Below, in pieces: positions 12,862-51,251 of a stretch of 64,000 bases of DNA. The notes below the pieces were generated by a model. The model was not told the DNA's origin. It saw nothing but the letters and a program-made list of their open reading frames with translations, and did not search any database. Made by a program: the position numbers and the translations under genes. The DNA lies in the NCBI GenBank assembly GCA_963779415.1, contig CAVZYA010000002.1, positions 1,184,001-1,248,000 of the forward strand, read 5' to 3'. The stretch's first letter is position 1. Each line of letters starts with the position of its first letter. Origin of the DNA: an uncultured Acidobacteriota bacterium (GTDB lineage: Bacteria; Acidobacteriota; Thermoanaerobaculia; UBA5066).

Positions 12862-13152
12862 ATGAGCGAGCCCAGGGTCACGGTCTTGCTGAGCGCGGAC
12901 GAATGGCGCTTCGTCTCGGACCTCCGGGCGCTCCCCTCGTCGCCTCTCAGGGACCGGGCGCTCGCCCTCTTCAACGCCGTTCTCGTCCTCGCGCGCGAGC
13001 CGCGCTGTGCCGAGGTCCAGGCGGACGGCGTCCCCTGCTCGACGCCGAGCCAGAGCTGCGACCAGTGCCTTCACCTCGACGAGATGCTGGATCTGCTCCG
13101 GCGGCGGGCCTTCGAAGCCGTGGAGCCGCCGGGCGCCGTCCGGAAGCGGTGA
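12862..13152 (+). CDS. Small Cys-rich hypothetical protein
   Basis: AGGAG SD; PRCAEVQADGVPC...SCDQC; lies within the operon. Confidence 0.7.
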   Translation: MSEPRVTVLLSADEWRFVSDLRALPSSPLRDRALALFNAVLVLAREPRCAEVQADGVPCSTPSQSCDQCLHLDEMLDLLRRRAFEAVEPPGAVRKR

Positions 13153-13217
13153 GGCAAACGGCTCATGAACGGTCCGGAGCGGGGCGGGCGAGCCTTGCGC
13201 GGGAGGGTGATGCGCGC

Positions 13218-14273
13218 ATGACCGGTCGTCTCCCGGCGCTCCTCGCGGCGGCGCTTCTGCTTGCCGTCCCGACGGTTCGGGGTGTCGATGTCGCGAAGGA
13301 CGAAGTGGATACCTGCCTCTCCTGTCACGGGGAGAAGAGCCTCGAGAAGAAACTGCCGAGCGGCGAGGTGAAGTCGCTCTTCGTGGACCGCGCCACCTTC
13401 GAGAAATCGGTCCACGGCGCCAAGCTGGGCTGCACCGGCTGCCACCCGGGCTACCAGGAGATTCCCCACCCCGAGCGTCCCGCGAAGGATCTCGCCTCCT
13501 TTACGGCCTCGTTCCGCGAGACGTGCCGGAGCTGCCATTTCGCCAACTACACCAAGGCCCTCGACGGCGTCCACTTCGCGGCCCTCTCGAAGGGAAACTC
13601 GGCCGCCCCCTTCTGCGTCGACTGCCACGGCTCCCACGACATCACCAAGCCCAACGAGCCGCGGACGAGGATCTCCGACACTTGCGGGACCTGCCATTCG
13701 ACCGAAGCCGAGCAGTATGCCGAGAGCGTCCACGGCAAGGCGCTCGCGGAGACGAACAACCCGGACGTTCCCGTCTGCACCGACTGCCACAAGTCGCACG
13801 CCATCGCCGACCCGAGAGGACAGACCTGGCGCATGAGCTCCCCCGAGACGTGCGGTCACTGTCACACGGACAAGGCCCGGATGGAGAAGTACGGCCTTTC
13901 GACGAACGTCTACCGTTCGTACCTCGACGACTTCCACGGCCGGAGCGCCTCGCTCATCGCAGGGCAGAAGAAGCAGGCGAAGAAGATCGTCGCCATCTGC
14001 GTCGACTGCCACGGCGTCCACGACATCGAGCGGGTGAAGGACGCGGGCTCGAAGGTCCTCAAGAAGAACCTGCAGGCGACCTGCGCGAAGTGCCATCCCG
14101 GCGCGCCGCCGAACTTCCCGGCGGCCTGGCTCTCGCACTACGAGCCGAGCCCGAAGAGAGCGCCGCTGGTCTGGGCGACGGCGCTCTTCTACCGGATTCT
14201 GATCCCCGTGATGATCGGAGGGCTCGTCCTCCAGGTCCTCCTGCACCTCTGGCGCGTGGTGGTGAACCGATGA
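13218..14273 (+). CDS. Multiheme cytochrome c (9 CxxCH) with signal peptide and C-terminal TM anchor
   Basis: CLSCH, CTGCH, CRSCH, CVDCH, CGTCH, CTDCH, CGHCH, CVDCH, CAKCH. Confidence 0.92.
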   Translation: MTGRLPALLAAALLLAVPTVRGVDVAKDEVDTCLSCHGEKSLEKKLPSGEVKSLFVDRATFEKSVHGAKLGCTGCHPGYQEIPHPERPAKDLASFTASFRETCRSCHFANYTKALDGVHFAALSKGNSAAPFCVDCHGSHDITKPNEPRTRISDTCGTCHSTEAEQYAESVHGKALAETNNPDVPVCTDCHKSHAIADPRGQTWRMSSPETCGHCHTDKARMEKYGLSTNVYRSYLDDFHGRSASLIAGQKKQAKKIVAICVDCHGVHDIERVKDAGSKVLKKNLQATCAKCHPGAPPNFPAAWLSHYEPSPKRAPLVWATALFYRILIPVMIGGLVLQVLLHLWRVVVNR

Positions 14274-14996
14274 GCCGGTACGTCGTCCGCTTCTCGAAAA
14301 AACAGCGCGCCGAGCATCTCATCGTCATGATGCTCTTCGTGACGCTCGCCGTGACGGGCTTTCCGCAGAAGTTCTACGAAGCCCGCTGGGCCGGGGTCAT
14401 CGTGAACGCGATCGGCGGCCTCGACCGCGTCCGGTTCTTCCACCGGATGGCCGGCCTCCTCTTCAGCGTGGCGACGATCTTCCACGTCGTGCTGATCACC
14501 GTGCTCGCCCTCGCCCGGAAGGCCGGGATGACGATGGTGCCGACACGCCGCGATTTCCTGGACGCGATCCAGCAGATCCGCTGGTATCTCGGGCCTCGCG
14601 GAGGCCCCCGCGAAGTTCGACCGGTACGACTACCGGCAGAAGTTCGAATACTGGGGGATGCTGATCGGAAGCCTCGTCATGGTCGCCACGGGCCTCGTCC
14701 TCTACCTTCCGCTCCTCTTCACGCGCTTCTTCCCGGGCGAGCTCATCCCCGTGGCGCAGGTGGCCCACAGCAACGAGGGGCTGATGGCGTTCCTCGTCGT
14801 CATCACGTGGCACATCTACAACGCCCACCTCTCGCCGGACGTCTTCCCGTTCGACACCACCATCTTCACGGGCCGCATCTCCGAGGAGCGGATGCACCAC
14901 GAGCACCCTCTCGAGCTCGCGCGGCTGACCGGCGCGCCCGAGGAAGGGGCGGGCGGCGACGACCCGTCCTCCGGCGGCGCCGCGCCCCCGGCCTGA
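14270..14996 (+). CDS. Cytochrome b subunit (FdnI/HyaC-like), frameshift near 14592
   Basis: RFSKKQRAEH, RFFHRMAG; after removing one G: FDRYDYRQKFEYWG, VAHSNEG, WHIYNAH, EERMHHEHPLE. Confidence 0.85.
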
Positions 14997-41536: not shown

Positions 41537-42199
41537 TCAGGCGCGGGGCGGGACGACGTAGAGGAGGATCGCGACGTAGTGGCAGGCGCTCCCGGCGAGG
41601 ACGAAGACGTGCCAGACCGGATGCGCCCAGCGGAATCTCCGGTCCATGGCGTAGAAGGCGACTCCGACCGAGTAGATGACCCCCCCCGCGACGAGCCAGG
41701 CGACGCCGGCCGGCGGCAGGGCGGCCGTCAGCGGCTTCCACGCCACGACGATGCACCACCCCATGACGAGATAGAGCGCCGTCGAGAGGACGGGGAGCTT
41801 CCCGGTCCAGAGCGACTTGAAGACGATGCCGAGGACGGCGAGCGACCAGACGACGCCGAAGAGAGACCATCCCCACGCCCCCTGGAGCTTGACGAGGAGG
41901 AATGGCGTGTAGCTCCCGGCGATGACGAGGAAGATCGCCGCGTGGTCGAGCCTCCGGAAGACCCCCTTCACGCGCGGGCCCCGGAAGGCGTGGTAGAGCG
42001 TCGAGACCGTGTAGAAGAGGACGAGGCTCGCGGCGAAGACGCTGCAGGAGACGACGACCCAGGCGTCGCCCCGAAGGGACGCGAGCGTGATCAGGACGGC
42101 GGCGCCCGCCGCGAAGATCACCGCCCCGACGCCGTGCGTGACGGCGTTGGCGATCTCCGCGGCGCGGGAGGCGGGAACGCGGGGGCGGGCGGTTCTCAT
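41537..42199 (-). CDS. Hemolysin III / PAQR family membrane protein (TrhA/YqfA-like)
   Basis: EIANAVTHG, STLYH, LDHAAIFLVIAGSYTP, HPVWHVFVLAGSACHY. Confidence 0.93.
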   Translation of the reverse strand: MRTARPRVPASRAAEIANAVTHGVGAVIFAAGAAVLITLASLRGDAWVVVSCSVFAASLVLFYTVSTLYHAFRGPRVKGVFRRLDHAAIFLVIAGSYTPFLLVKLQGAWGWSLFGVVWSLAVLGIVFKSLWTGKLPVLSTALYLVMGWCIVVAWKPLTAALPPAGVAWLVAGGVIYSVGVAFYAMDRRFRWAHPVWHVFVLAGSACHYVAILLYVVPPRA

Positions 42200-42475: not shown

Positions 42476-43986
42476 ATGAGTTCATCGGCAGCTCGCGTTC
42501 GTGGTTTCGTCCCGCTCCTCGCGATTGCCCTGGGCCTCTCGTTCCCGGCGACCGCCCAGATCCAGGTCTTTTCGACCGGCGGATACGTGACTCCGGAGAC
42601 AATTTCACTCGCGCCGAGCGGATTCGGGGCGTACGGCGGGAGCTACTTCATCCCGGATGCCTCCACGGGCAACATCTGGATCTTGCCGGCCACCGGAGGT
42701 CCTCCCGCCGCGTTCCTGACCCCTCCGACCGGCGTGAGCGTCATCGGAGGAATCTTTCTTCCGTCGGGCTGGGGCCCCGATTCGGGAAAATTCGTGGTCG
42801 CTGCCGCGACATCCGCCGAACAGACTGCCGCGCTCCTTCGCTTCGACAGCGATGGCAACAGGAATCCTGTCGCCGCAGGGGACGGTATCTTCTCGACGCC
42901 GATGATTTCGCCGGCGAATTTCGGGATCTGGGTGGCCACCTCTTCGTCACCGATGAGTACAATGGCGTCTGGCGGCTCGCTCCCTCCGGACGACTCGCTG
43001 AAGCCTTTTTACCTGGATCGGTCTTTCGCGACCGGCCCGTTTGGCCTCGAATTCGCCCCCTCCGGTTGGGGTGCTTTCGGGAATCGCATGCTGGTCAGCG
43101 ACTCGTACACAAGCAACCCCGACGACCTGGCCCGAAAGCGAGCTATATCGTCGCCGTCTCCGCGGACGGAAACTCGAGCAGCATCTTCGCGACCGTGCCG
43201 CTCCCGGAGGTCCGAAGAACGGCCTGAGGCAGATGCTAATGGACCCGAACGACTATTTCCGGATTCGCTCGGGATCCCCGGAAGGCTTCTCCTGGTCTCC
43301 GTCAGCGGCTCTCCGAATGGTCTAGGCTATCTCGGAGAGCTGCTGGCTCTCGACGCGACGGGCACGATCGTGGCGCATCTGCAGGTGGGGAGCATTCTGG
43401 CGAAGTTCGACCCCCGCGGAATGCTATAACGAGCGACGGGCATCTCCTGGTCAGCGATGCAACCGATCCCATTCTGCAGGCCACGGCCCACGACTTCCTC
43501 CCCGGCCGGGGAGAGATCTCATCCTCCCCAAGACGTCAAGCAGGACGTCCTGACTCAGTTGATCACGCTGCGCGCGACGATCACCGACAAGCAGGACGGG
43601 AAGAAGCTCGACGACGCGATCGGTCATCTGACGAAGTCGATTGACCAGGTCTCTGGCTCGGTTCCTCTCATCTGCAGCCCGCGTCGGGCGCGACGGTCTT
43701 CAACGAAGAGAAGGACGCGGTCAACAAGCTGAATGGCCTGGTCAAAGACAAGCACAGCACGGTCCCCGGCGCCACGCTGCAGGGGTTCATCGACCGGCTC
43801 GTGCGGGCGGATGCGGCCCTTGCGCTCGTGGCCATCAACGACGCGTTCGCGGCGCACGTCGACGCGAAGAGAATCGCCCAGGCCAACCAGGAGCTGATGA
43901 ACGGGAACGTTCAGGCCGCGAACGGGAATCCGGAGAGCGCCATCGAGCAGTACCGCAATGCCTGGAGCCATGCGGTGAAGGGCTGA
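42476..43986 (+). CDS. Secreted hypothetical protein (beta-propeller-like N-terminus, helical C-terminus), several frameshifts
   Basis: Signal peptide; coding-like segments across ORFs 42476..43429, 43457..43732 and 43801..43986 in shifting frames. Confidence 0.55.
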
Positions 43987-45843
43987 GTCCCGCTGGAGTC
44001 GGCGCCGCAGGCGGCCGGCGGGCCGCGCCCGGAGGCGGGCCGTCGAGGCGCGCCCGCGCCTTCTCGTCGCGCGAGAGGTTCCAGAGGATCAGGACGAACG
44101 CGACGATCGCGACGTCGACGAGCGAGAGGCCGAGAAGGAGCTGTCCGAAGACGAGCTTCCCGATCCCGAAGAGCGCCGAGTAGACGAGGACGATCCCGAG
44201 GAGCCAGTTCACGAGCGACATCGCCCCGCCGGGGATCGGCTCGCGCCCGAGGCCGAGCCGCCTCGAGACCGCGGCCCACCCGGGCCCGCCCGGCCGGACC
44301 CGCCGGTAGAACGCGTCGAGCGTGGCGTCGGGCTCGGGCTTCGTCAGGAACGTCACGGCCACCCAGACGACCGTCGAGATGGCCACGGTGACGAGCATGA
44401 CGAGCGCCTGGACGCGGAACTCCTCCGCGTCGAAGAGGGCGTGCCCGCGCGGGTAGGGGTTCCGGATCATCGCCATGGCGGCCGAGCGAGACGACCATCG
44501 AGGAGAGCATGGCGCTGATCTCGCTCCAGGCGTTGATCCGCCACCAGTACCACCGGAGGATCAGGACGAGGCCTGTCCCGCTTCCGAGCGCGAGGAGGAA
44601 CCGCCACGCCTTCTCGATCGTCGTCAGGTTCATCGTCACGACGATCGACGCGAGGAAGAGGAAGACCGTCGTCAGCCGTCCGACGAGGACGTAGTGCTTC
44701 TCGCCCGCCCCCTTCTTCAGGAACCGCTTGTAGATGTCGCCGACGAGATAGCTCGCCCCCCAGTTCAGGTGGGTCCCGACCGTGGACATGTAGGCCGCCG
44801 CGAAGCCGGCCAGCATGAACCCCTTCCACCCGGACGGCATCAGGTCGACCATGGCCTGCACGTAGGCCGCCTCACGGTCCATCTTCCCGCCGACGAGGAC
44901 GCCGCCGGGGTAGAGGAGGACGGTGCAGAGGCCGGTCACGATCCAGGGCCACGGGCGCAGGGCGTAGTGCCCGACGTTGAAGAAGAGCGTCGCGAGGACG
45001 CCGTCCTTTTCCGTTCGCGCGGAGAAGATCCGCTGCGCGACGTAGCCGCCGCCCCCCGGCTCGGCGTCCGGGATACCACGCGGCCCACCACTGGACGGCG
45101 AGGAACGTCAGCATCGCGATGGCCGGCATCCAGACCGAGCCGGCGGGCGGCAGGACGGAGAGCGCGGCGTCGGCGCTGCCGAAGTGCGCGGCGAGGCCGT
45201 CGCGAAGGGCCCCCATCCCGCCGACCTTCTTCACGGCGAACCAGGCGAGGACGATGACCGCCGACATCTTGATGACGAGCTGGACGAGGTCCGTCCAGAG
45301 GACGGCCCACATCCCCGCCGCCGCCGAGTAGCCGACGGTGATGACGAAGCAGAGGCCGACGGCGAGGACCGGGTCGATGCCGAGCGACACCTGCAGGATC
45401 TTCACCATCGCGAGCGTCACCCAGCCGAGGATGATCAGGTTGATCGGCAGCGCGAGGTAGAGCGCCCGGAAGCCGCGGAGGAACGTCGCGGGGGAGCCGC
45501 TGTAGCGGATCTCGGCGAACTCCACGTCCGTCATCACGTTCGCCCGCCGCCAGAGGCGCGCGTAGAGGAAGACGGTGAGCGTCCCGCTCATCACCATGTT
45601 CCACCAGAGCCAGTTCCCGGCCACGCCGTGCGCGGCCACGAGCCCCGTCACGACGAGCGGCGTGTCGGCGGCGAAGGTCGTCGCGATCATCGCGGCGCCG
45701 GCCAGCCACCAGGGGACGGCGCGCCCCGCCACGAAGTACTCGGAGAGCGACTCGCCTCCCTTCTTCGTGAACCGGATCCCGACGCCGATCGAGAGGGCGA
45801 AGTAGGCGAAGACGATGCCCCAGTCGAGGAAGGAGAGCGTCAT
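43835..45843 (-). CDS. Sodium:solute symporter (SSS) family, frameshifts near 45065 and 44480; 3' end uncertain
   Basis: LSEYFVAGRAVPWW, ATTFAADTPL, AVLWTDLVQ, AAYMSTVGTHLNWG, LRWYWWRINAWSEISAM. Confidence 0.88.
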
Positions 45844-45913
45844 GCGGCGAGGATACGCGGGCGGGACCTTCTGAATAGTAGAATCAGTCTCAACAATTGA
45901 AAGGAGAAATCCG

Positions 45914-46486
45914 ATGAGAATCCGTACGATCCGTTTCTTCGCTCCTGCGGTCGCGTGTCTTCTTGCCGCCCCCGTCCTCCGCGCCGCCGACAAGCCGATG
46001 GCGCCGCCGAAGCCCGCCCCCGAGATGGCCCAGCTCGCCTATTTCGCCGGGACGTGGGCGTGCTCGGGGAAGACGTTCGCGAGCCCGATGGGGCCCGAGC
46101 ACGCAACGGCAGGGACCGTCCATGCGGTGTCCGCCCTTGGAGGGTTCTGGACCGTCGTCCACTACGACGAGAAGAAGACCGCCGCGAACCCCATGCCCTA
46201 TCACGCGGCGGTGTTCATGGGCTATGACGCGGCGGAGAAGGTCTTCGTCGAGCGCTGCTACGACAGCTTCGGCGGCTACTGCAGCGAGACCTCGAAGGGG
46301 TGGTCCGGGGACACCCTCGCCTTCGAGGGTCCGGCGATGGGGATGGGGCCGCAGATGAATTCCCGCGACACTTTCCTCAAGAAGGGTGCCTCCGAAATGG
46401 TCCACACTGGCGAGATGCAGGGCCCCGACGGAAAGTGGATGAAGCTGGACGAGGAGACCTGCACGAAGGCCGCGGCGAAGAAGTAA
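45914..46486 (+). CDS. Exported DUF1579-like beta-barrel protein
   Basis: AGGAG SD, signal peptide, PAPEMAQLAYFAGTW, LGGFW, MGYD. Confidence 0.75.
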   Translation: MRIRTIRFFAPAVACLLAAPVLRAADKPMAPPKPAPEMAQLAYFAGTWACSGKTFASPMGPEHATAGTVHAVSALGGFWTVVHYDEKKTAANPMPYHAAVFMGYDAAEKVFVERCYDSFGGYCSETSKGWSGDTLAFEGPAMGMGPQMNSRDTFLKKGASEMVHTGEMQGPDGKWMKLDEETCTKAAAKK

Positions 46487-47117: not shown

Positions 47118-48608
47118 ATGAGCCCGAAAAAGACGTCCGCGAAGAAGGCGAAAACTCACTCTGCCACCACCCCGAAGAAACCCGGGAAGTCCGTTCCGTC
47201 CGGAGTCTCCGCGTGGGAGGACGATCCCGGAGCGCCGGGTGCGAAGCCGAACAAGCCGATCACGGTTCCGGCTCCGGCTCTCGGCCAGTCCCCCTATCCG
47301 CTCGCGATGTCCGGGCCGGCGCCTGCCGCGAAGGTCTATCCGAAGGGGACGGCGGAATTCCGGTACTGGAATGCGGCCGCCGCCGCTCGCCGGGGAGCGG
47401 GGCTGTGGGGCGGCATCGTCCCGGCGGGGACCGGCTGGCAACCGGGCGGAACGCTCCGCGTCACGCTCGACCACGGCACCGACCTGAACGCCTACTACGA
47501 CCGGAAGGGGCTCTGGTTCTTCCACGCCACGGTGAAGGGCACGACGATTTACTCGGGCGAAAGTCCGGACGTCCTCTGTCACGAACTGGGCCACGCCATC
47601 CTCGACTCGGTCCGCCCGCAGCTCTGGGACGCCATGAGCGCCGAGGTCGCGGCCTTCCACGAGTCGTTCGGGGACATGAGCGCGCTCCTCTGCGGGCTCC
47701 AGGTCCCCTCGCTCCGGCAGGCGGTCCTCACCGAGACGGGGGGGACGCTTTATCACAGCTCGCGCCTTTCCCGTCTCGCCGAGCAGCTCGGTTGGGCCAT
47801 CCGGCAGACGCAGCCGGATGCCGCCGACGCCGACTGCCTCCGGAATGCGGTCAACTCGTTCTTTTACCGCGACCCGCTCACGATTCCGCACTCCGGTCCG
47901 GTGACGGAGCTGACCTCCGAGCCGCACAGCTTCTCCCGCGTCTTCACCGGAGGCTTCTTCGAGGCGCTGTCGGGGATGGTCGGCACCCTTTCGCACCCGG
48001 CCACCGACGCCGCCCTCGCGACCGCCAGTCGCGACGCGGCCCTCCTCCTGATCGACGCCGTACGGGCCGCTCCGGTCGTCCCCGCCTATTACAGCCAGGT
48101 GGCCTCTCTGATGCTGGCCGCCGACCACGATCACTTCGGCGGAAAGTACACGGCGGCCGTGAAGAGCGCCTTCGTCCGGCGCGGGATCCTCTCGCTCGCC
48201 GCCGCGGCGTCTCTCCGTCCCGCCGCCGCCTCCGCCGCTCGCCGCAGCGTCCTCACGGCCGGCAAGCCGGTTTCGCCCGCAGGCCTCGTTTCCGTCGCGT
48301 TCGACGCGGAGGAGTTCGCCCTCGGCAAAGGGAAAGTCCATGTCCTTACCGCATCGGCCCAGCCGCTCCTCCGCGTCCGTTCGTCGGCGCCCTCCTCCGG
48401 CCCGGCGGCGGATTCTTCGGGAGAGGACGTGGCTCGCTCTTTCCTCGCATACCTGTTCCGGCGCGGGCGCGTCGACCTCGGCGCGCACGGCGACTCGGAG
48501 GTCCGCGTCGAGCACGCGATTGCCCGGAAGACGCACGACCTGGTCTCACGGAACGGGGAGCTTGCGATCGTCCGCCGGACCTTCGACTGCGGCTTCGACT
48601 GCTTCTGA
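47118..48608 (+). CDS. Thermolysin-like (M4/M36) zinc metallopeptidase without signal peptide
   Basis: LNAYYD, DVLCHELGHAILD (HExxH), AFHESFGD (third ligand E), EPHSFS; Lys-rich N-terminus. Confidence 0.85.
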   Translation: MSPKKTSAKKAKTHSATTPKKPGKSVPSGVSAWEDDPGAPGAKPNKPITVPAPALGQSPYPLAMSGPAPAAKVYPKGTAEFRYWNAAAAARRGAGLWGGIVPAGTGWQPGGTLRVTLDHGTDLNAYYDRKGLWFFHATVKGTTIYSGESPDVLCHELGHAILDSVRPQLWDAMSAEVAAFHESFGDMSALLCGLQVPSLRQAVLTETGGTLYHSSRLSRLAEQLGWAIRQTQPDAADADCLRNAVNSFFYRDPLTIPHSGPVTELTSEPHSFSRVFTGGFFEALSGMVGTLSHPATDAALATASRDAALLLIDAVRAAPVVPAYYSQVASLMLAADHDHFGGKYTAAVKSAFVRRGILSLAAAASLRPAAASAARRSVLTAGKPVSPAGLVSVAFDAEEFALGKGKVHVLTASAQPLLRVRSSAPSSGPAADSSGEDVARSFLAYLFRRGRVDLGAHGDSEVRVEHAIARKTHDLVSRNGELAIVRRTFDCGFDCF

Positions 48609-48896: not shown

Positions 48897-48963
48897 ACCC
48901 TCTTCGGCCGCCACTGGGCAATCCGGCCGGCGGAGTCCCTTGCGCGGCGGCAGGACGGACGCC

Positions 48964-51251
48964 ATGAGAGACGACACTCTCTCGCCTCCCGTCGACCTTC
49001 CGCCCCGGTTTCGCCCGCGGACGGACTTCCATGCGCTCTCGGTCCGCGACCTCGTCGACGCCCGCGACGCCTATCACGTCCACTTGTCGAACAAGGAGCA
49101 CGTCATCGGGACGGCCATCGGGCTCTACCGGATCCGAAGAGGGGACTTCTTCGAAAAGAATCCTCCCGGTACGCTTCGCCCTCCGAACGACGAGCGGCTT
49201 TCGGGACCGAGGGATCTCTTCAACTCCGTCGTCGTCCCCTGGTCGTGGCCGTCTGTCCTCGTCTTCGTCGAGCGGTGGGTGGACCGGAACGCCTGGCGGA
49301 GCGGGGCCGCGGGCGCCGCGATGGAGCCCGATCAGTTCATCCCGCGGTATCTCTACCTCCCGGATGGCCGCATCGTCCCCACGTGTGTCGTCCTCCTCCG
49401 GCGCGTCGACACCCGCCCCGCGGCCCCACCGCCCGTCTCGTTTCCCAAGGAGTTCGTCGGCGGCGGCTACCCGCTCCTCACGTCGGTGCAGGGACGCCAG
49501 CGGGTCGGATCGGTCGGCTGCCTCGTGACGGACGGGCACAACACGTTCGCCCTGACGAATCGGCACGTGACGGGCGACGACGGGGCGCCGGTGACGACGG
49601 TCCTCGGCGGACACGAGGTCGTGATCGGCTCGGCCAGCTCGCAGGTGCTGGGGAAACGCCGCTTCGACCAGGTCTACGAACCCTGGCCGGGCCGGCGGGT
49701 CTTCGTGAACCTGGACGTGGGCCTCGTGAAGGTGAACGACCTCTCCCAGTGGACCACGCAGGTGCTGGGACTCGGGACGCTCGCCGGCCCCGTGGACCTG
49801 AACACCGACACGATCTCGCTTTCGCTCGTCGACCAGCGGGTGGAGGCCTTCGGCGCCGTTTCGGGGCCGCTCTCGGGACGCATTGCCGCACTCTTCTATC
49901 GCTACCAGGAGATCGGCGGATTCGAGTACGTCTCCGACCTTCTGATCGCTCCGGACAGCGGGTCCGAGACCCTGCCGGGCGACTCGGGGACTCTCTGGTG
50001 CCTCGTCCAGGAGGGCGAGTCGGCGAGCCACCACCCGATCGCCCTCGAGTGGGGGGGGAGCGGATCGAGGAGACGGGGACGGACCGGGCGCGCAGCTACA
50101 CGCTCGCGACGTTCGTCAGCACGATCCTCCGGGAGCTCGAGCTCGACCTGGTCCGCGACTGGAACGTGGGCCTTCCCTACTACTGGGGGGCGCTGGGACA
50201 CTACACGATTGCCGCCCGCGCCTGCTCGGCCGTGACAGGCTCGCTCAAGACACTTCTCGGGGCGAATCTCGAGCGGGTCACCTACCCGGACGCGCGGCTC
50301 TTGCCTTCGACGTTCCAGGGCCTTTCGAAACGGGACTTCGTCCCTCTGGCCGACGTGCCCGACTACGTCTGGAAGACGCCGGGCGGCCCCGCGCAGCGAA
50401 AGACGGAAAACCCGTCCCACTTCGCGGACATGGACAAGCCTCTCCCCGACGCCCCGAACAAGGGAAAGACACTGCTCGATCTCTGTGCCGACCCGCAGAA
50501 CGTGACGCCGGAGTTCTGGAAGAGCTACTACGGCCGCGTACACGATACGAGCAAGGGGACGCTGCCGTTCCGTGTCCGGCAGGTCTACGAGGAGATGGTG
50601 GCCGCGGCCGCCGGGCGGGACGTCGCCCGTTACGTCGCGGCCGCCGGCATCCTCGCCCACTACGTCGGCGATGCCTGCCAGCCGCTCCACATCTCATACC
50701 TGTTCAACGGCGATCCCGATCGGACAGAGGACGGCGCCACGTTCGGCAAAGGCGTCCACGGTGCGTACGAGGCTTCGATGATCAACGCCCACGGGCCGGA
50801 GATTCTCGCAGGCGTTTCGGCGGGGCTCGCGGGTACGTCTCTTCCGGCGAAGCTCGCCGGGGGGCAGGCCGCGGCTCTCGCGACGGTCGACCTCATGTCC
50901 GGCACGTTCCAGAACCTCAAGCCGATGGAGATCGTCGACGCCTATGCCGCCGGGAAGGACCTCTGGTCCCTTTTCGGCCCGGGCACGATCACGACCCTCG
51001 TGCAGGGAGTCCGGACGCTCGCGGGCCTCTGGCAGAGCGCGTGGGAGGAGGGGAACGGGGACGGCATCCCGGCGTCGAAGCTCGGGGCCGTGCCGGAATC
51101 CGAACTCGTCCGCCTTTACGGCGATCCGGGTTTCCTTCCGTCCCTCACCCTCGACCAGTTCGTCGCCGGAGCGGGAGGCGCAAAGCCGAAACCCTCGTCC
51201 GGCGTCGGAAGAAAGACATCGCAAACGGGGAAGCCGAAGAAGAAGTCGTAG
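48964..51251 (+). CDS. Trypsin-like (Nal1-like) serine protease fused to an S1/P1 nuclease (phospholipase C/P1 fold) domain, about 762 aa, frameshift at the G8 run 50051-50058
   Basis: Triad LTNRHV / DVGLV / PGDSG in ORF 48940..50235. Adding one G continues into WGALGHYTIA, DVPD, HFADMD, AHYVGDACQPLH, VHGAYE in ORF 49245..51251. Confidence 0.85.

Follow-up and report, generated by a model that had tools for sequence, protein, structure and literature searches.

The gene described here lies at 48964-51251 on the plus strand of a 64,000-nucleotide stretch of DNA (the window; contig CAVZYA010000002.1, positions 1,184,001 to 1,248,000, assembly GCA_963779415.1) from an uncultured Acidobacteriota bacterium. 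It is one gene, encoding a cytoplasmic two-domain protein of 762 amino acids, and it is split in this assembly by a one-base shortfall in a run of G residues. Residues 1 to ~395 form a complete NAL1-type serine protease of the chymotrypsin fold, its His/Asp/Ser triad intact. A short flexible linker follows, and the invariant Trp behind it (residue 409 of 762) is the exact starting point of a trinuclear-zinc phosphoesterase with the S1/P1-nuclease / phospholipase-C fold. Hundreds of species share the fusion, the two sets of catalytic residues and the place of the Trp. Judging from sequence comparisons and structure models, the balance tips towards self-cleavage, in which the fused protease would cut its own protein between the last Tyr of the linker and this Trp.

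In the window the gene is present as two overlapping plus-strand open reading frames (ORFs), 48940..50235 and 49245..51251, in different frames. A single ORF of 762 amino acids is absent; the two halves meet in a run of eight G (50051..50058), where one extra G would restore a single frame. Translation of 48964-50058 yields a piece of 365 amino acids containing TNRHV, LDVGLV and GDSG. Translation of 50052-51251 in the other frame yields YYWGALGHYTIA, with the Trp codon at 50184-50186. The order within this second frame is VGLPYYWGALGHYTIA, followed by DVPD, SHFADMD, AHYVGDACQPLH and VHGAYE, and the frame ends at 51251. Translation of both frames confirmed the motif positions given in an earlier reading of the DNA (the sequence-only reading), including its intact triad and the P1-type zinc ligand motifs behind the Trp at 50184.

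The same reading had assumed a repaired protein of 762 amino acids, and relatives do read straight through the break. A homologue from the same genus (locus L002) is in one frame across it, and when the two DNA sequences are aligned the window lacks one base within the G run. The protein P0157 is intact, has 762 amino acids and is 88% and 86% identical to the first and second window piece, respectively. At the break it reads ALEWGGERIEETGTDRARRYTL, which is one residue off (Arg for Ser) from the window sequence with one G added. Its residues 1-365 agree with a start at the ATG at 48964. Because L002 is single-framed and P0157 is intact, we consider the repaired form of 762 amino acids to be the natural form of the gene.

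The protease part (48964..50058, plus strand, 365 amino acids up to the frame break) matched the Pfam family Nal1_C (PF25819) with 39.5 bits (cut-off 26.1, E 4.8e-10); the match of the window piece to NAL1_N was weak (E 0.04). PF25819 is also precomputed on most of the relatives. The catalytic His (in TNRHV) is encoded at 49564..49566, the Asp (in LDVGLV) at 49714..49716 and the Ser (in GDSG) at 49984..49986, being H201, D251 and S341 of the window protein. In an alignment of 64 full-length relatives (A1), the equivalent His198 and Ser338 were invariant, as were Trp405, His410 and seven further ligand positions, and Asp248 and Glu600 were conserved at 90% or more. The fold was tested on the homologue L002, not on the broken gene of the window. 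An AlphaFold2 model of this intact homologue (m8422b40c34d5; L002:421-2697), made from A1, had a mean predicted local distance difference test score (pLDDT) of 90.1 and a predicted template modelling score (pTM) of 0.63. In a Foldseek search it matched all rice NAL1 structures in the Protein Data Bank (PDB), with E 3e-21 and target-normalised template modelling scores of 0.72-0.79 over ~400-420 columns. The next rows were alpha-lytic and Streptomyces griseus-type proteases.

Among solved structures, none is closer to the N-terminal 400 amino acids of the bacterial protein than a plant yield protein, NARROW LEAF 1 (NAL1; 7y77, 8pmg, 8pmi), and the match takes in the whole of its crystallised core, an N-terminal domain plus a chymotrypsin-fold domain. 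The bacterial ~400 residues match the entire NAL1 36-458 construct at 22-23% identity, and the two proteins also share the Pfam Nal1_C match and the His/Asp/Ser triad. The available text of PMC12012508 describes rice NAL1 as a plant protease that is active only as a hexameric cage, within which other proteins are cut, and reports no nuclease domain in it, whereas the bacterial protein has a fused nuclease-like domain. A two-copy complex prediction for the bacterial protease part (A1 residues 1-395) scored 0.16 (mark 0.42), which is no evidence either way. With NAL1 as the closest structure, the size of the bacterial family and its spread across many phyla suggest that the NAL1 fold originated in bacteria; in any case the family gives a bacterial context to the fold of this rice yield gene.

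The second frame (50052..51251, stop codon 51249-51251) encodes the last strands and the C-terminal helix of the protease, the linker, the zinc phosphoesterase domain and a Lys-rich tail. An AlphaFold2 model of this C-terminal piece was built from the window sequence aligned to 61 relatives (mf842c6dc4313; pLDDT 88.4, pTM 0.84). Foldseek matched the model to the S1/P1-nuclease / zinc-phospholipase-C superfamily only, at an E of only 5e-3. With VIA-align, it gave Z 16.4-18.0 to 29 PDB entries, the next unrelated row having Z 4.0. These entries take in Bacillus cereus phospholipase C (PLC), S1 nuclease, SmNuc1, Listeria PC-PLC, alpha-toxins, AtBFN2, TBN1 and P1 nuclease. The root mean square deviation (rmsd) was 2.7-3.6 over 212-232 residues against the single-domain nucleases and phospholipases C, and 5.5-6.5 in the alpha-toxin rows. 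All 29 alignments begin at model residue 45, which is the Trp (50184..50186); in 18 of them it pairs with chain residue 1, and in the rest the chain is numbered from 21, 26 or 27. Structurally, the Trp corresponds to the first residue of the solved S1/P1 nucleases and phospholipases C in their mature form, as had been proposed. The fold, with WGALGH, DVPD, HFADMD, HYVGDACQPLH and HGAYE, extends over 50184..51071 (model residues 45 to ~340). It is followed by a C-terminal extension with a low-confidence, Lys-rich end (51072..51248): the nuclease rows and those of the B. cereus and Listeria phospholipases stop at model residues 331-342, and pLDDT drops after ~370.

The zinc ligands of P1 nuclease are Trp1, His6, Asp45, His60, His116, Asp120, His126, His149 and Asp153. 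In an alignment of 62 sequences of the C-terminal piece (A2), W45, H50, D104, H123, D128, H203, D207, H213, H236 and E240 were invariant. This covers the P1 ligand set with Glu instead of Asp as last ligand; the counterpart of Asp45 is the Asp of either DVPD or HFADMD. By fold and ligands the domain belongs to the S1/P1/PLC superfamily, without a Trp-started chain or secretion. The protease is grouped with NAL1 by Pfam and fold. The characterised members of the superfamily are extracellular, periplasmic or vacuolar. Among them, the S1/P1 nucleases (1ak0, P1; 5fb9, S1; 3w52, AtBFN2/ENDO2; 8qjl, SmNuc1) resemble the domain in fold (Z 16.4-17.9), in the N-terminal WGxxGH helix, in the HxxGDxxQPLH motif and in the ligand set, and they give the best sequence-profile matches. 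However, the known nucleases are exported from the cell or sent to the vacuole, and removal of a signal peptide or propeptide leaves the Trp as their first residue, whereas here there is no signal peptide and 404 residues, the whole protease, precede the Trp. In addition, the bacterial domain is ~60-130 amino acids longer, its last ligand is Glu and the Pfam score of the window piece is below the cut-off (see below). A chain starting at Trp, which is a feature of the superfamily, is not what the gene encodes; it is achievable only after proteolysis.

The family is large. When the C-terminal piece was compared with 1.84 billion cluster representatives, 987 proteins matched at E <=0.001 and 202 at E <=1e-30. 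Among the 150 matches listed, 63 are at least 700 amino acids long, start with Met and bear both GDSG and WGxxGH. At least 498 stretches in species-representative genomes encode a relative. By record title these belong to Acidobacteriota, Alpha-, Beta- and Gammaproteobacteria, Chloroflexota, Myxococcota, Actinomycetota, Bacteroidota, Planctomycetota, Verrucomicrobiota, Armatimonadota and Gemmatimonadota, and one contig labelled as a Nitrososphaeraceae archaeon metagenome-assembled genome (MAG) also carries a relative. Cultured non-pathogens such as Ktedonobacter racemifer, Archangium gephyra, Sphingobium and Bradyrhizobium are among the carriers. The record of a same-genus relative (L015, a contig of genome G006) is titled 'Acidithiobacillales bacterium', whereas kin at the family or order level are titled Holophagales or Acidobacteriota; the label of this one MAG may be wrong. 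Existing annotations of the family go no further than hypothetical, 'Nal1-like putative serine protease' or 'S1/P1 Nuclease'. No NCBIfam family was found for the five proteins examined, and literature searches found no description of a NAL1-like/S1-P1 fusion.

The two domains are encoded as one gene in the homologues, not as separate genes. Both motifs were in one stop-free frame at 71 of 79 genome loci (the other 8 fell outside the strict pattern used), and the gene is one open frame in all six fusion-bearing relatives of the window genome. As only 6 of 60 relatives have it, its distribution is patchy. The Trp is internal in all 243 full-length rows, and none of the shorter matches was a short form of the family starting at Trp. 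Stand-alone nuclease genes were considered and rejected: the short matches begin at an internal Met in the last strands of the protease (e.g. MQWGG...) and look like truncated gene calls. The absence of a signal peptide, claimed earlier for the window protein, extends to the family, since none of 144 Met-started full-length relatives had a hydrophobic 10-residue window ahead of the first conserved motif (median lead 14 amino acids).

In the models, a flexible linker joins the C-terminal helix of the protease to the first helix of the phosphoesterase. In the window it reads WNVGLPYY (50160..50183), and the proposed cleavage is after the Tyr encoded at 50181-50183. The pLDDT was below 50 at residues 400-405 of the full-length homologue model and 37-43 of the C-piece model, and the linker is conserved in sequence despite this modelled disorder. 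The residue before the Trp (pre-Trp residue) was Tyr in 205 of 243 unique full-length rows, Thr in 15, Phe in 11, Ser in 6, Arg in 3, Ile in 2 and Val in 1. The junction of an aromatic residue and Trp, the conservation of which had been put forward as a check, is therefore found in 216 of the rows, with the Trp itself invariant. The residue two before the Trp is mostly Glu or Asp.

The pre-Trp residue co-varies with a residue of the protease. A WGG motif (50050..50058) is found 22 residues after the catalytic Ser, in a long strand of the model, and its second Gly (50056-50058) is position 362 in homologue numbering. In rows with an aromatic pre-Trp residue, position 362 is Gly in 211 of 214. 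Rows with Thr, Ser, Val, Ile or Arg before the Trp mostly carry a larger residue at this position (Gln, Arg, Glu, Lys, Ala or Ser; 21 of 27 rows). The association (phi 0.80) was the highest of all columns filled in at least 200 rows, after the pre-Trp (P1) column itself; the next value was 0.49. Further columns with high association (364, 359, 335 and 333) belong to the segments around WGG and just ahead of the catalytic Ser. Such a pairing, a large pre-Trp residue with Gly and a small one with a bulky residue, would follow if position 362 formed part of the wall of the S1 pocket, like positions 216/217 of chymotrypsin-fold proteases. In a FastTree tree built without the coupled columns, each of the two traits changes at least seven times, and the four informative independent pairs all agree in direction.

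Four observations point to a cut at Tyr|Trp by the fused protease: the Trp equals residue 1 of the solved structures, it is always internal, a disordered linker precedes it and the pre-Trp residue co-varies with WGG. The full-length protein would be an inactive zymogen, because the free amino group of Trp1 belongs to the zinc site in the solved members. The Tyr of the linker would sit in the S1 pocket of the protease, the wall of which would include the second Gly of WGG. The protease would then cut the linker after the Tyr (or Phe) preceding the Trp, in its own or in a neighbouring chain, and the cut would release an active phosphoesterase, most likely a nuclease. The sequence-only reading had named the fused protease as one candidate for a cut at this site; the internal Trp, the disordered linker and the specific co-variation now agree with this part of it, the cut itself still being deduced.

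Several points weigh against self-cleavage. No cleavage product was observed, and each step past the fusion itself is one that we infer. Position 362 was assigned to the S1 pocket from the place of the motif, by what we take to be its equivalence with Trp215-Gly216-217 of chymotrypsin. Six rows with a small pre-Trp residue keep Gly362, and three rows with an aromatic one are without it. When the co-variation was assessed on independent pairs (n=6), four changed the same way, none the opposite way and two were unchanged (sign test, p 0.125), a test that is underpowered. The pTM of 0.63 of the full-length model makes the arrangement of the domains uncertain. The C-terminal piece of the window scored 24.2 bits against Pfam S1-P1_nuclease (PF02265), below the cut-off of 29.5 (E 3.6e-5, profile 1-129 of 258). 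Finally, a real frameshift might mean that this organism has no working copy of the gene.

That last point is a substantial possibility, though the lesser one: the gene would be a genuine pseudogene, or a variant switched off by slippage in the G run, rather than the victim of an assembly error. How the family works does not depend on this point. In its in-frame form the gene would have nine consecutive G across the WGG codons, the same position as the co-varying residue; the same-genus homologue has no homopolymer at these codons. In principle, a run of nine G might slip and so switch the gene off and on. In the same assembly rpoB (1424 amino acids) and rpoC (1412 amino acids) are each one intact frame and another run of eight G sits within an intact Sortilin/BNR gene, and for this reason the assembly does not appear to be riddled with homopolymer errors. 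A run of eight C at 41680 is surrounded by ORFs without a Pfam match. The gene is present in only 7 of 61 related genomes, this genome counted. In addition, copies on plasmids of Neorhizobium galegae and Sinorhizobium sp. B11 match in four and two pieces, under four and two annotated coding sequences, which suggests natural decay of these rhizobial copies. Both come from cultured strains (CP090555.1 and CP091033.1, respectively), look decayed, and carry the fusion under coding sequences labelled 'hypothetical protein'.

Other observations favour an assembly error. The break is the sole lesion, and both halves retain all catalytic residues and are 86-88% identical to the intact P0157. It is a one-base change in length in the longest kind of homopolymer, which is a typical sequencing error. 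The genome assembly consists of 3 contigs with 92% completeness, and a sodium:solute symporter gene 3 kb upstream is likewise split across frames. This gene (43838-45993, minus strand) extends over at least two frames, with positions 1-174 of the SSF profile in ORF 44875-45993 and 277-403 in ORF 43914-44939; it is a second broken gene within 5 kb of the fusion gene and bears on indel errors in the assembly. Among public sequencing runs, none covered the stretch (best share of words 0.18). Of the contigs made from four runs, none spans 50051-50058; one ends at 50056 and one begins at 50070.

Independently of the zymogen question, the C-terminal domain might be a phospholipase C or another phosphodiesterase instead of a nuclease. 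Phospholipases C equal the nucleases in fold score, which weighs against the nuclease label: B. cereus PLC was the top VIA row with Z 18.0, against 17.9 for S1 nuclease. The Glu as last ligand is, we presume, shared with B. cereus PLC, and the Pfam family Zn_dep_PLPC matched 43 of 62 family members (best E 6.2e-6). However, S1-P1_nuclease matched 59 of the 62 at E <=0.01, with a best E of 1.9e-8. The profile of A2, compared with the solved members, also favoured nucleases (ENDO2 4.7e-5, S1 0.008, P1 0.02) over PLC (0.09). In the window protein, a His is found at Trp+5 and 23 residues separate the two late His ligands, a spacing which we take to fit P1 nuclease and not PLC. Since the sequence profiles lean to nucleases while the fold scores tie, a nuclease is only the more likely substrate class, not an established one, and a phospholipase or other phosphodiesterase is less likely. 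Of the label 'S1/P1 nuclease' given by the sequence-only reading, the fold holds and the activity is probable.

It is also conceivable, but unlikely, that the protein is not processed at all. It would then be an uncut bifunctional enzyme with a zinc site adapted to an internal Trp (e.g. with a backbone carbonyl and water replacing the amino group), and its protease would degrade other proteins. The missing cleavage product fits this, as does the variation of the pre-Trp residue, which is Thr, Ser, Arg, Ile or Val in the minority of rows given above. Moreover, the domain is divergent, being longer than the solved members, with a Glu for the last Asp ligand and the modest Foldseek E already mentioned. 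On the other hand, all 29 solved relatives begin at the Trp, the linker is conserved in sequence yet modelled as disordered, and the coupling between the pre-Trp residue and WGG has no reason in an uncut protein. In the passages available from PMC10576769, the exact position of W1 is described as crucial in Listeria PC-PLC, one added N-terminal residue being enough to switch its activity off.

The proposed self-cleavage has partial counterparts elsewhere. The alphavirus capsid protease is a chymotrypsin-fold domain that makes a single cut in cis at an aromatic residue, a few residues past its own C-terminal end. Its setting is different, a viral polyprotein, and no newly exposed N-terminal metal ligand activates what lies downstream of the cut. 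Listeria PC-PLC (PlcB), which is activated by Mpl, and B. cereus PC-PLC share the fold of the phosphoesterase domain (Z 17.4-18.0). According to the available text of PMC10576769, the PlcB proenzyme is inactive until Mpl removes the propeptide, the residues ahead of W1 blocking it. PlcB is a secreted enzyme with a propeptide of 26 amino acids and depends on a separate M4 metalloprotease for activation, whereas here the 'propeptide' would be a fused serine protease, the protein is cytoplasmic and an M4-like neighbour is not conserved.

The idea of a nuclease held inactive until a protease cuts it is shared with the Hachiman, AVAST and 'canu' systems. There, as far as described in the accessible text of Tuck et al. 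2025 (PMC12799240), a gated pro-nuclease is inactive until a trypsin-like protease cuts one site. In those systems a gene of its own always encodes the nuclease, which has the metallo-beta-lactamase fold, while an infection sensor is fused to the protease. In contrast, the protein described here has an S1/P1 fold, is a single chain and has no sensor or conserved partner gene. The claim that the nuclease fold differs from that of the known protease/pro-nuclease pairs (S1/P1/PLC versus metallo-beta-lactamase) agrees with this source. The fusion protein is a member of neither the PlcB/Mpl nor the Hachiman/AVAST class: it differs from the latter in fold and from both in compartment, activator and architecture.

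If self-cleavage is real, one cytoplasmic chain would unite two ideas. One is the removal of a propeptide, which is a known switch of secreted zinc phospholipases C. The other is the unmasking of a nuclease by a protease, which has just been shown in defence systems with another fold and separate genes. Beyond lifting a lid, the cut would then bring a new metal ligand into being. The protein could plausibly be a toxic effector in the cytoplasm that proteolysis keeps in check; defence, self-destruction under stress and turnover are among the options for its use. A bolder proposal, which we regard as doubtful, is a single-chain kill switch. In this proposal, a NAL1-type protease assembly would sense a signal (e.g. 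a nucleotide state via a NAL1-like N-terminal domain, or a phage product) and cut its own Tyr/Trp linker, and the N-terminal zinc ligand so made would arm a cytoplasmic S1/P1-type nuclease. Protease-gated immunity or programmed cell death would thereby gain another nuclease fold and a new, fused architecture, present in at least nine bacterial phyla (plus the one archaeal MAG contig), and its protease would be the likely bacterial ancestor of plant NAL1.

For the role in anti-phage immunity or cell death that the sequence-only reading had suggested, the evidence is divided and the role is unproven. The gene matched the PADLOC candidate model PDLC03017 ('trypsin-like', 611 positions), the first half with E 2.8e-13 (profile 15-259) and the second with E 1.3e-11 (profile 434-606), leaving 260-433 uncovered; nothing else in the genome matched this model. 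No paper naming the candidate system of PDLC03017 was found; the main text of the PADLOC 'embedded' preprint contains neither 'trypsin' nor 'peptidase', its supplements being outside the search. On the conjugative plasmid p1 of Sphingobium fuliginis (locus L097, 5795-18178), the fusion gene is part of a mobile, defence-like stretch. One side has ParDE and an 'anti-phage deoxyguanosine triphosphatase'. On the other side a CYTH gene directly follows the fusion gene, together with Tn7-like TniQ/TniB/transposase, IS3, an integrase and HipA. On an Ensifer plasmid the gene adjoins an integrase and IS91, and on a Ralstonia replicon its context is nondescript. The plasmid matches comprised five records, all of at least 0.39 Mb, and a phage search gave no match.

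Against a defence role stand the ordinary neighbours of the gene. These were scanned at 30 of the 71 loci with a recognised gene, chosen for at least 4.5 kb of flank on both sides and less than 60% mutual identity, by taking the two nearest ORFs on each side (120 ORFs). The neighbours were mostly metabolic or transport genes (top 25 of 161 Pfam families), and no family occurred at more than two of the 30 loci. PADLOC matches among the 120 were scattered singletons (a DpdE/ZorD-type helicase, PD-T4-6 and RecD). No strong association with defence islands was seen in the 30 loci, in a scan without a control set.

No conserved operon was found either. Clustering of ORFs of at least 100 amino acids in 80 loci returned only the fusion gene (80 loci) and its shadow ORFs (78, 13, 10 and 9 loci), and with no neighbour family common to the 80 loci, the fusion gene makes up the unit by itself. 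Nor was there conservation of the AraC-like, membrane and CarboxypepD_reg-like neighbours, considered as partners. In the window, a thermolysin-like peptidase (47118-48608, plus strand; 496 amino acids, HELGH) ends 355 bases upstream of the fusion gene on the same strand. Its matches to Pfam M4/M36 are weak (E 0.3), with none above threshold.

This neighbouring HExxH peptidase had been proposed as an alternative activator acting in trans. Its adjacency, the HELGH motif and the weak M4/M36 matches agree with such a role, and a 51% identical homologue is found 2.9 kb from the fusion gene, on the other strand, in an alphaproteobacterial locus (L027). Activation of Listeria PlcB by Mpl offers a precedent in the text available of PMC10576769. 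The proposal is nevertheless highly improbable and did not stand, as the peptidase is found beside the fusion at only 1 of 80 other genome loci and at none of the loci of the six fusion-bearing relatives, strong orthologues (E <1e-59) occur in 11 of 60 relatives, all of them without the fusion, and none of the six that carry the fusion has one, a DUF1579 gene directly precedes the fusion gene at the same-genus locus, and the clustering of the 80 loci showed no neighbour family beyond the shadow ORFs. The peptidase (47118-48608, and its homologue at 12969-14369 on the minus strand of L027) may represent an uncharacterised peptidase family of its own. In L027 this homologue follows a protein of 535 amino acids with a weak match to TIR_2 (E 7.5e-5).

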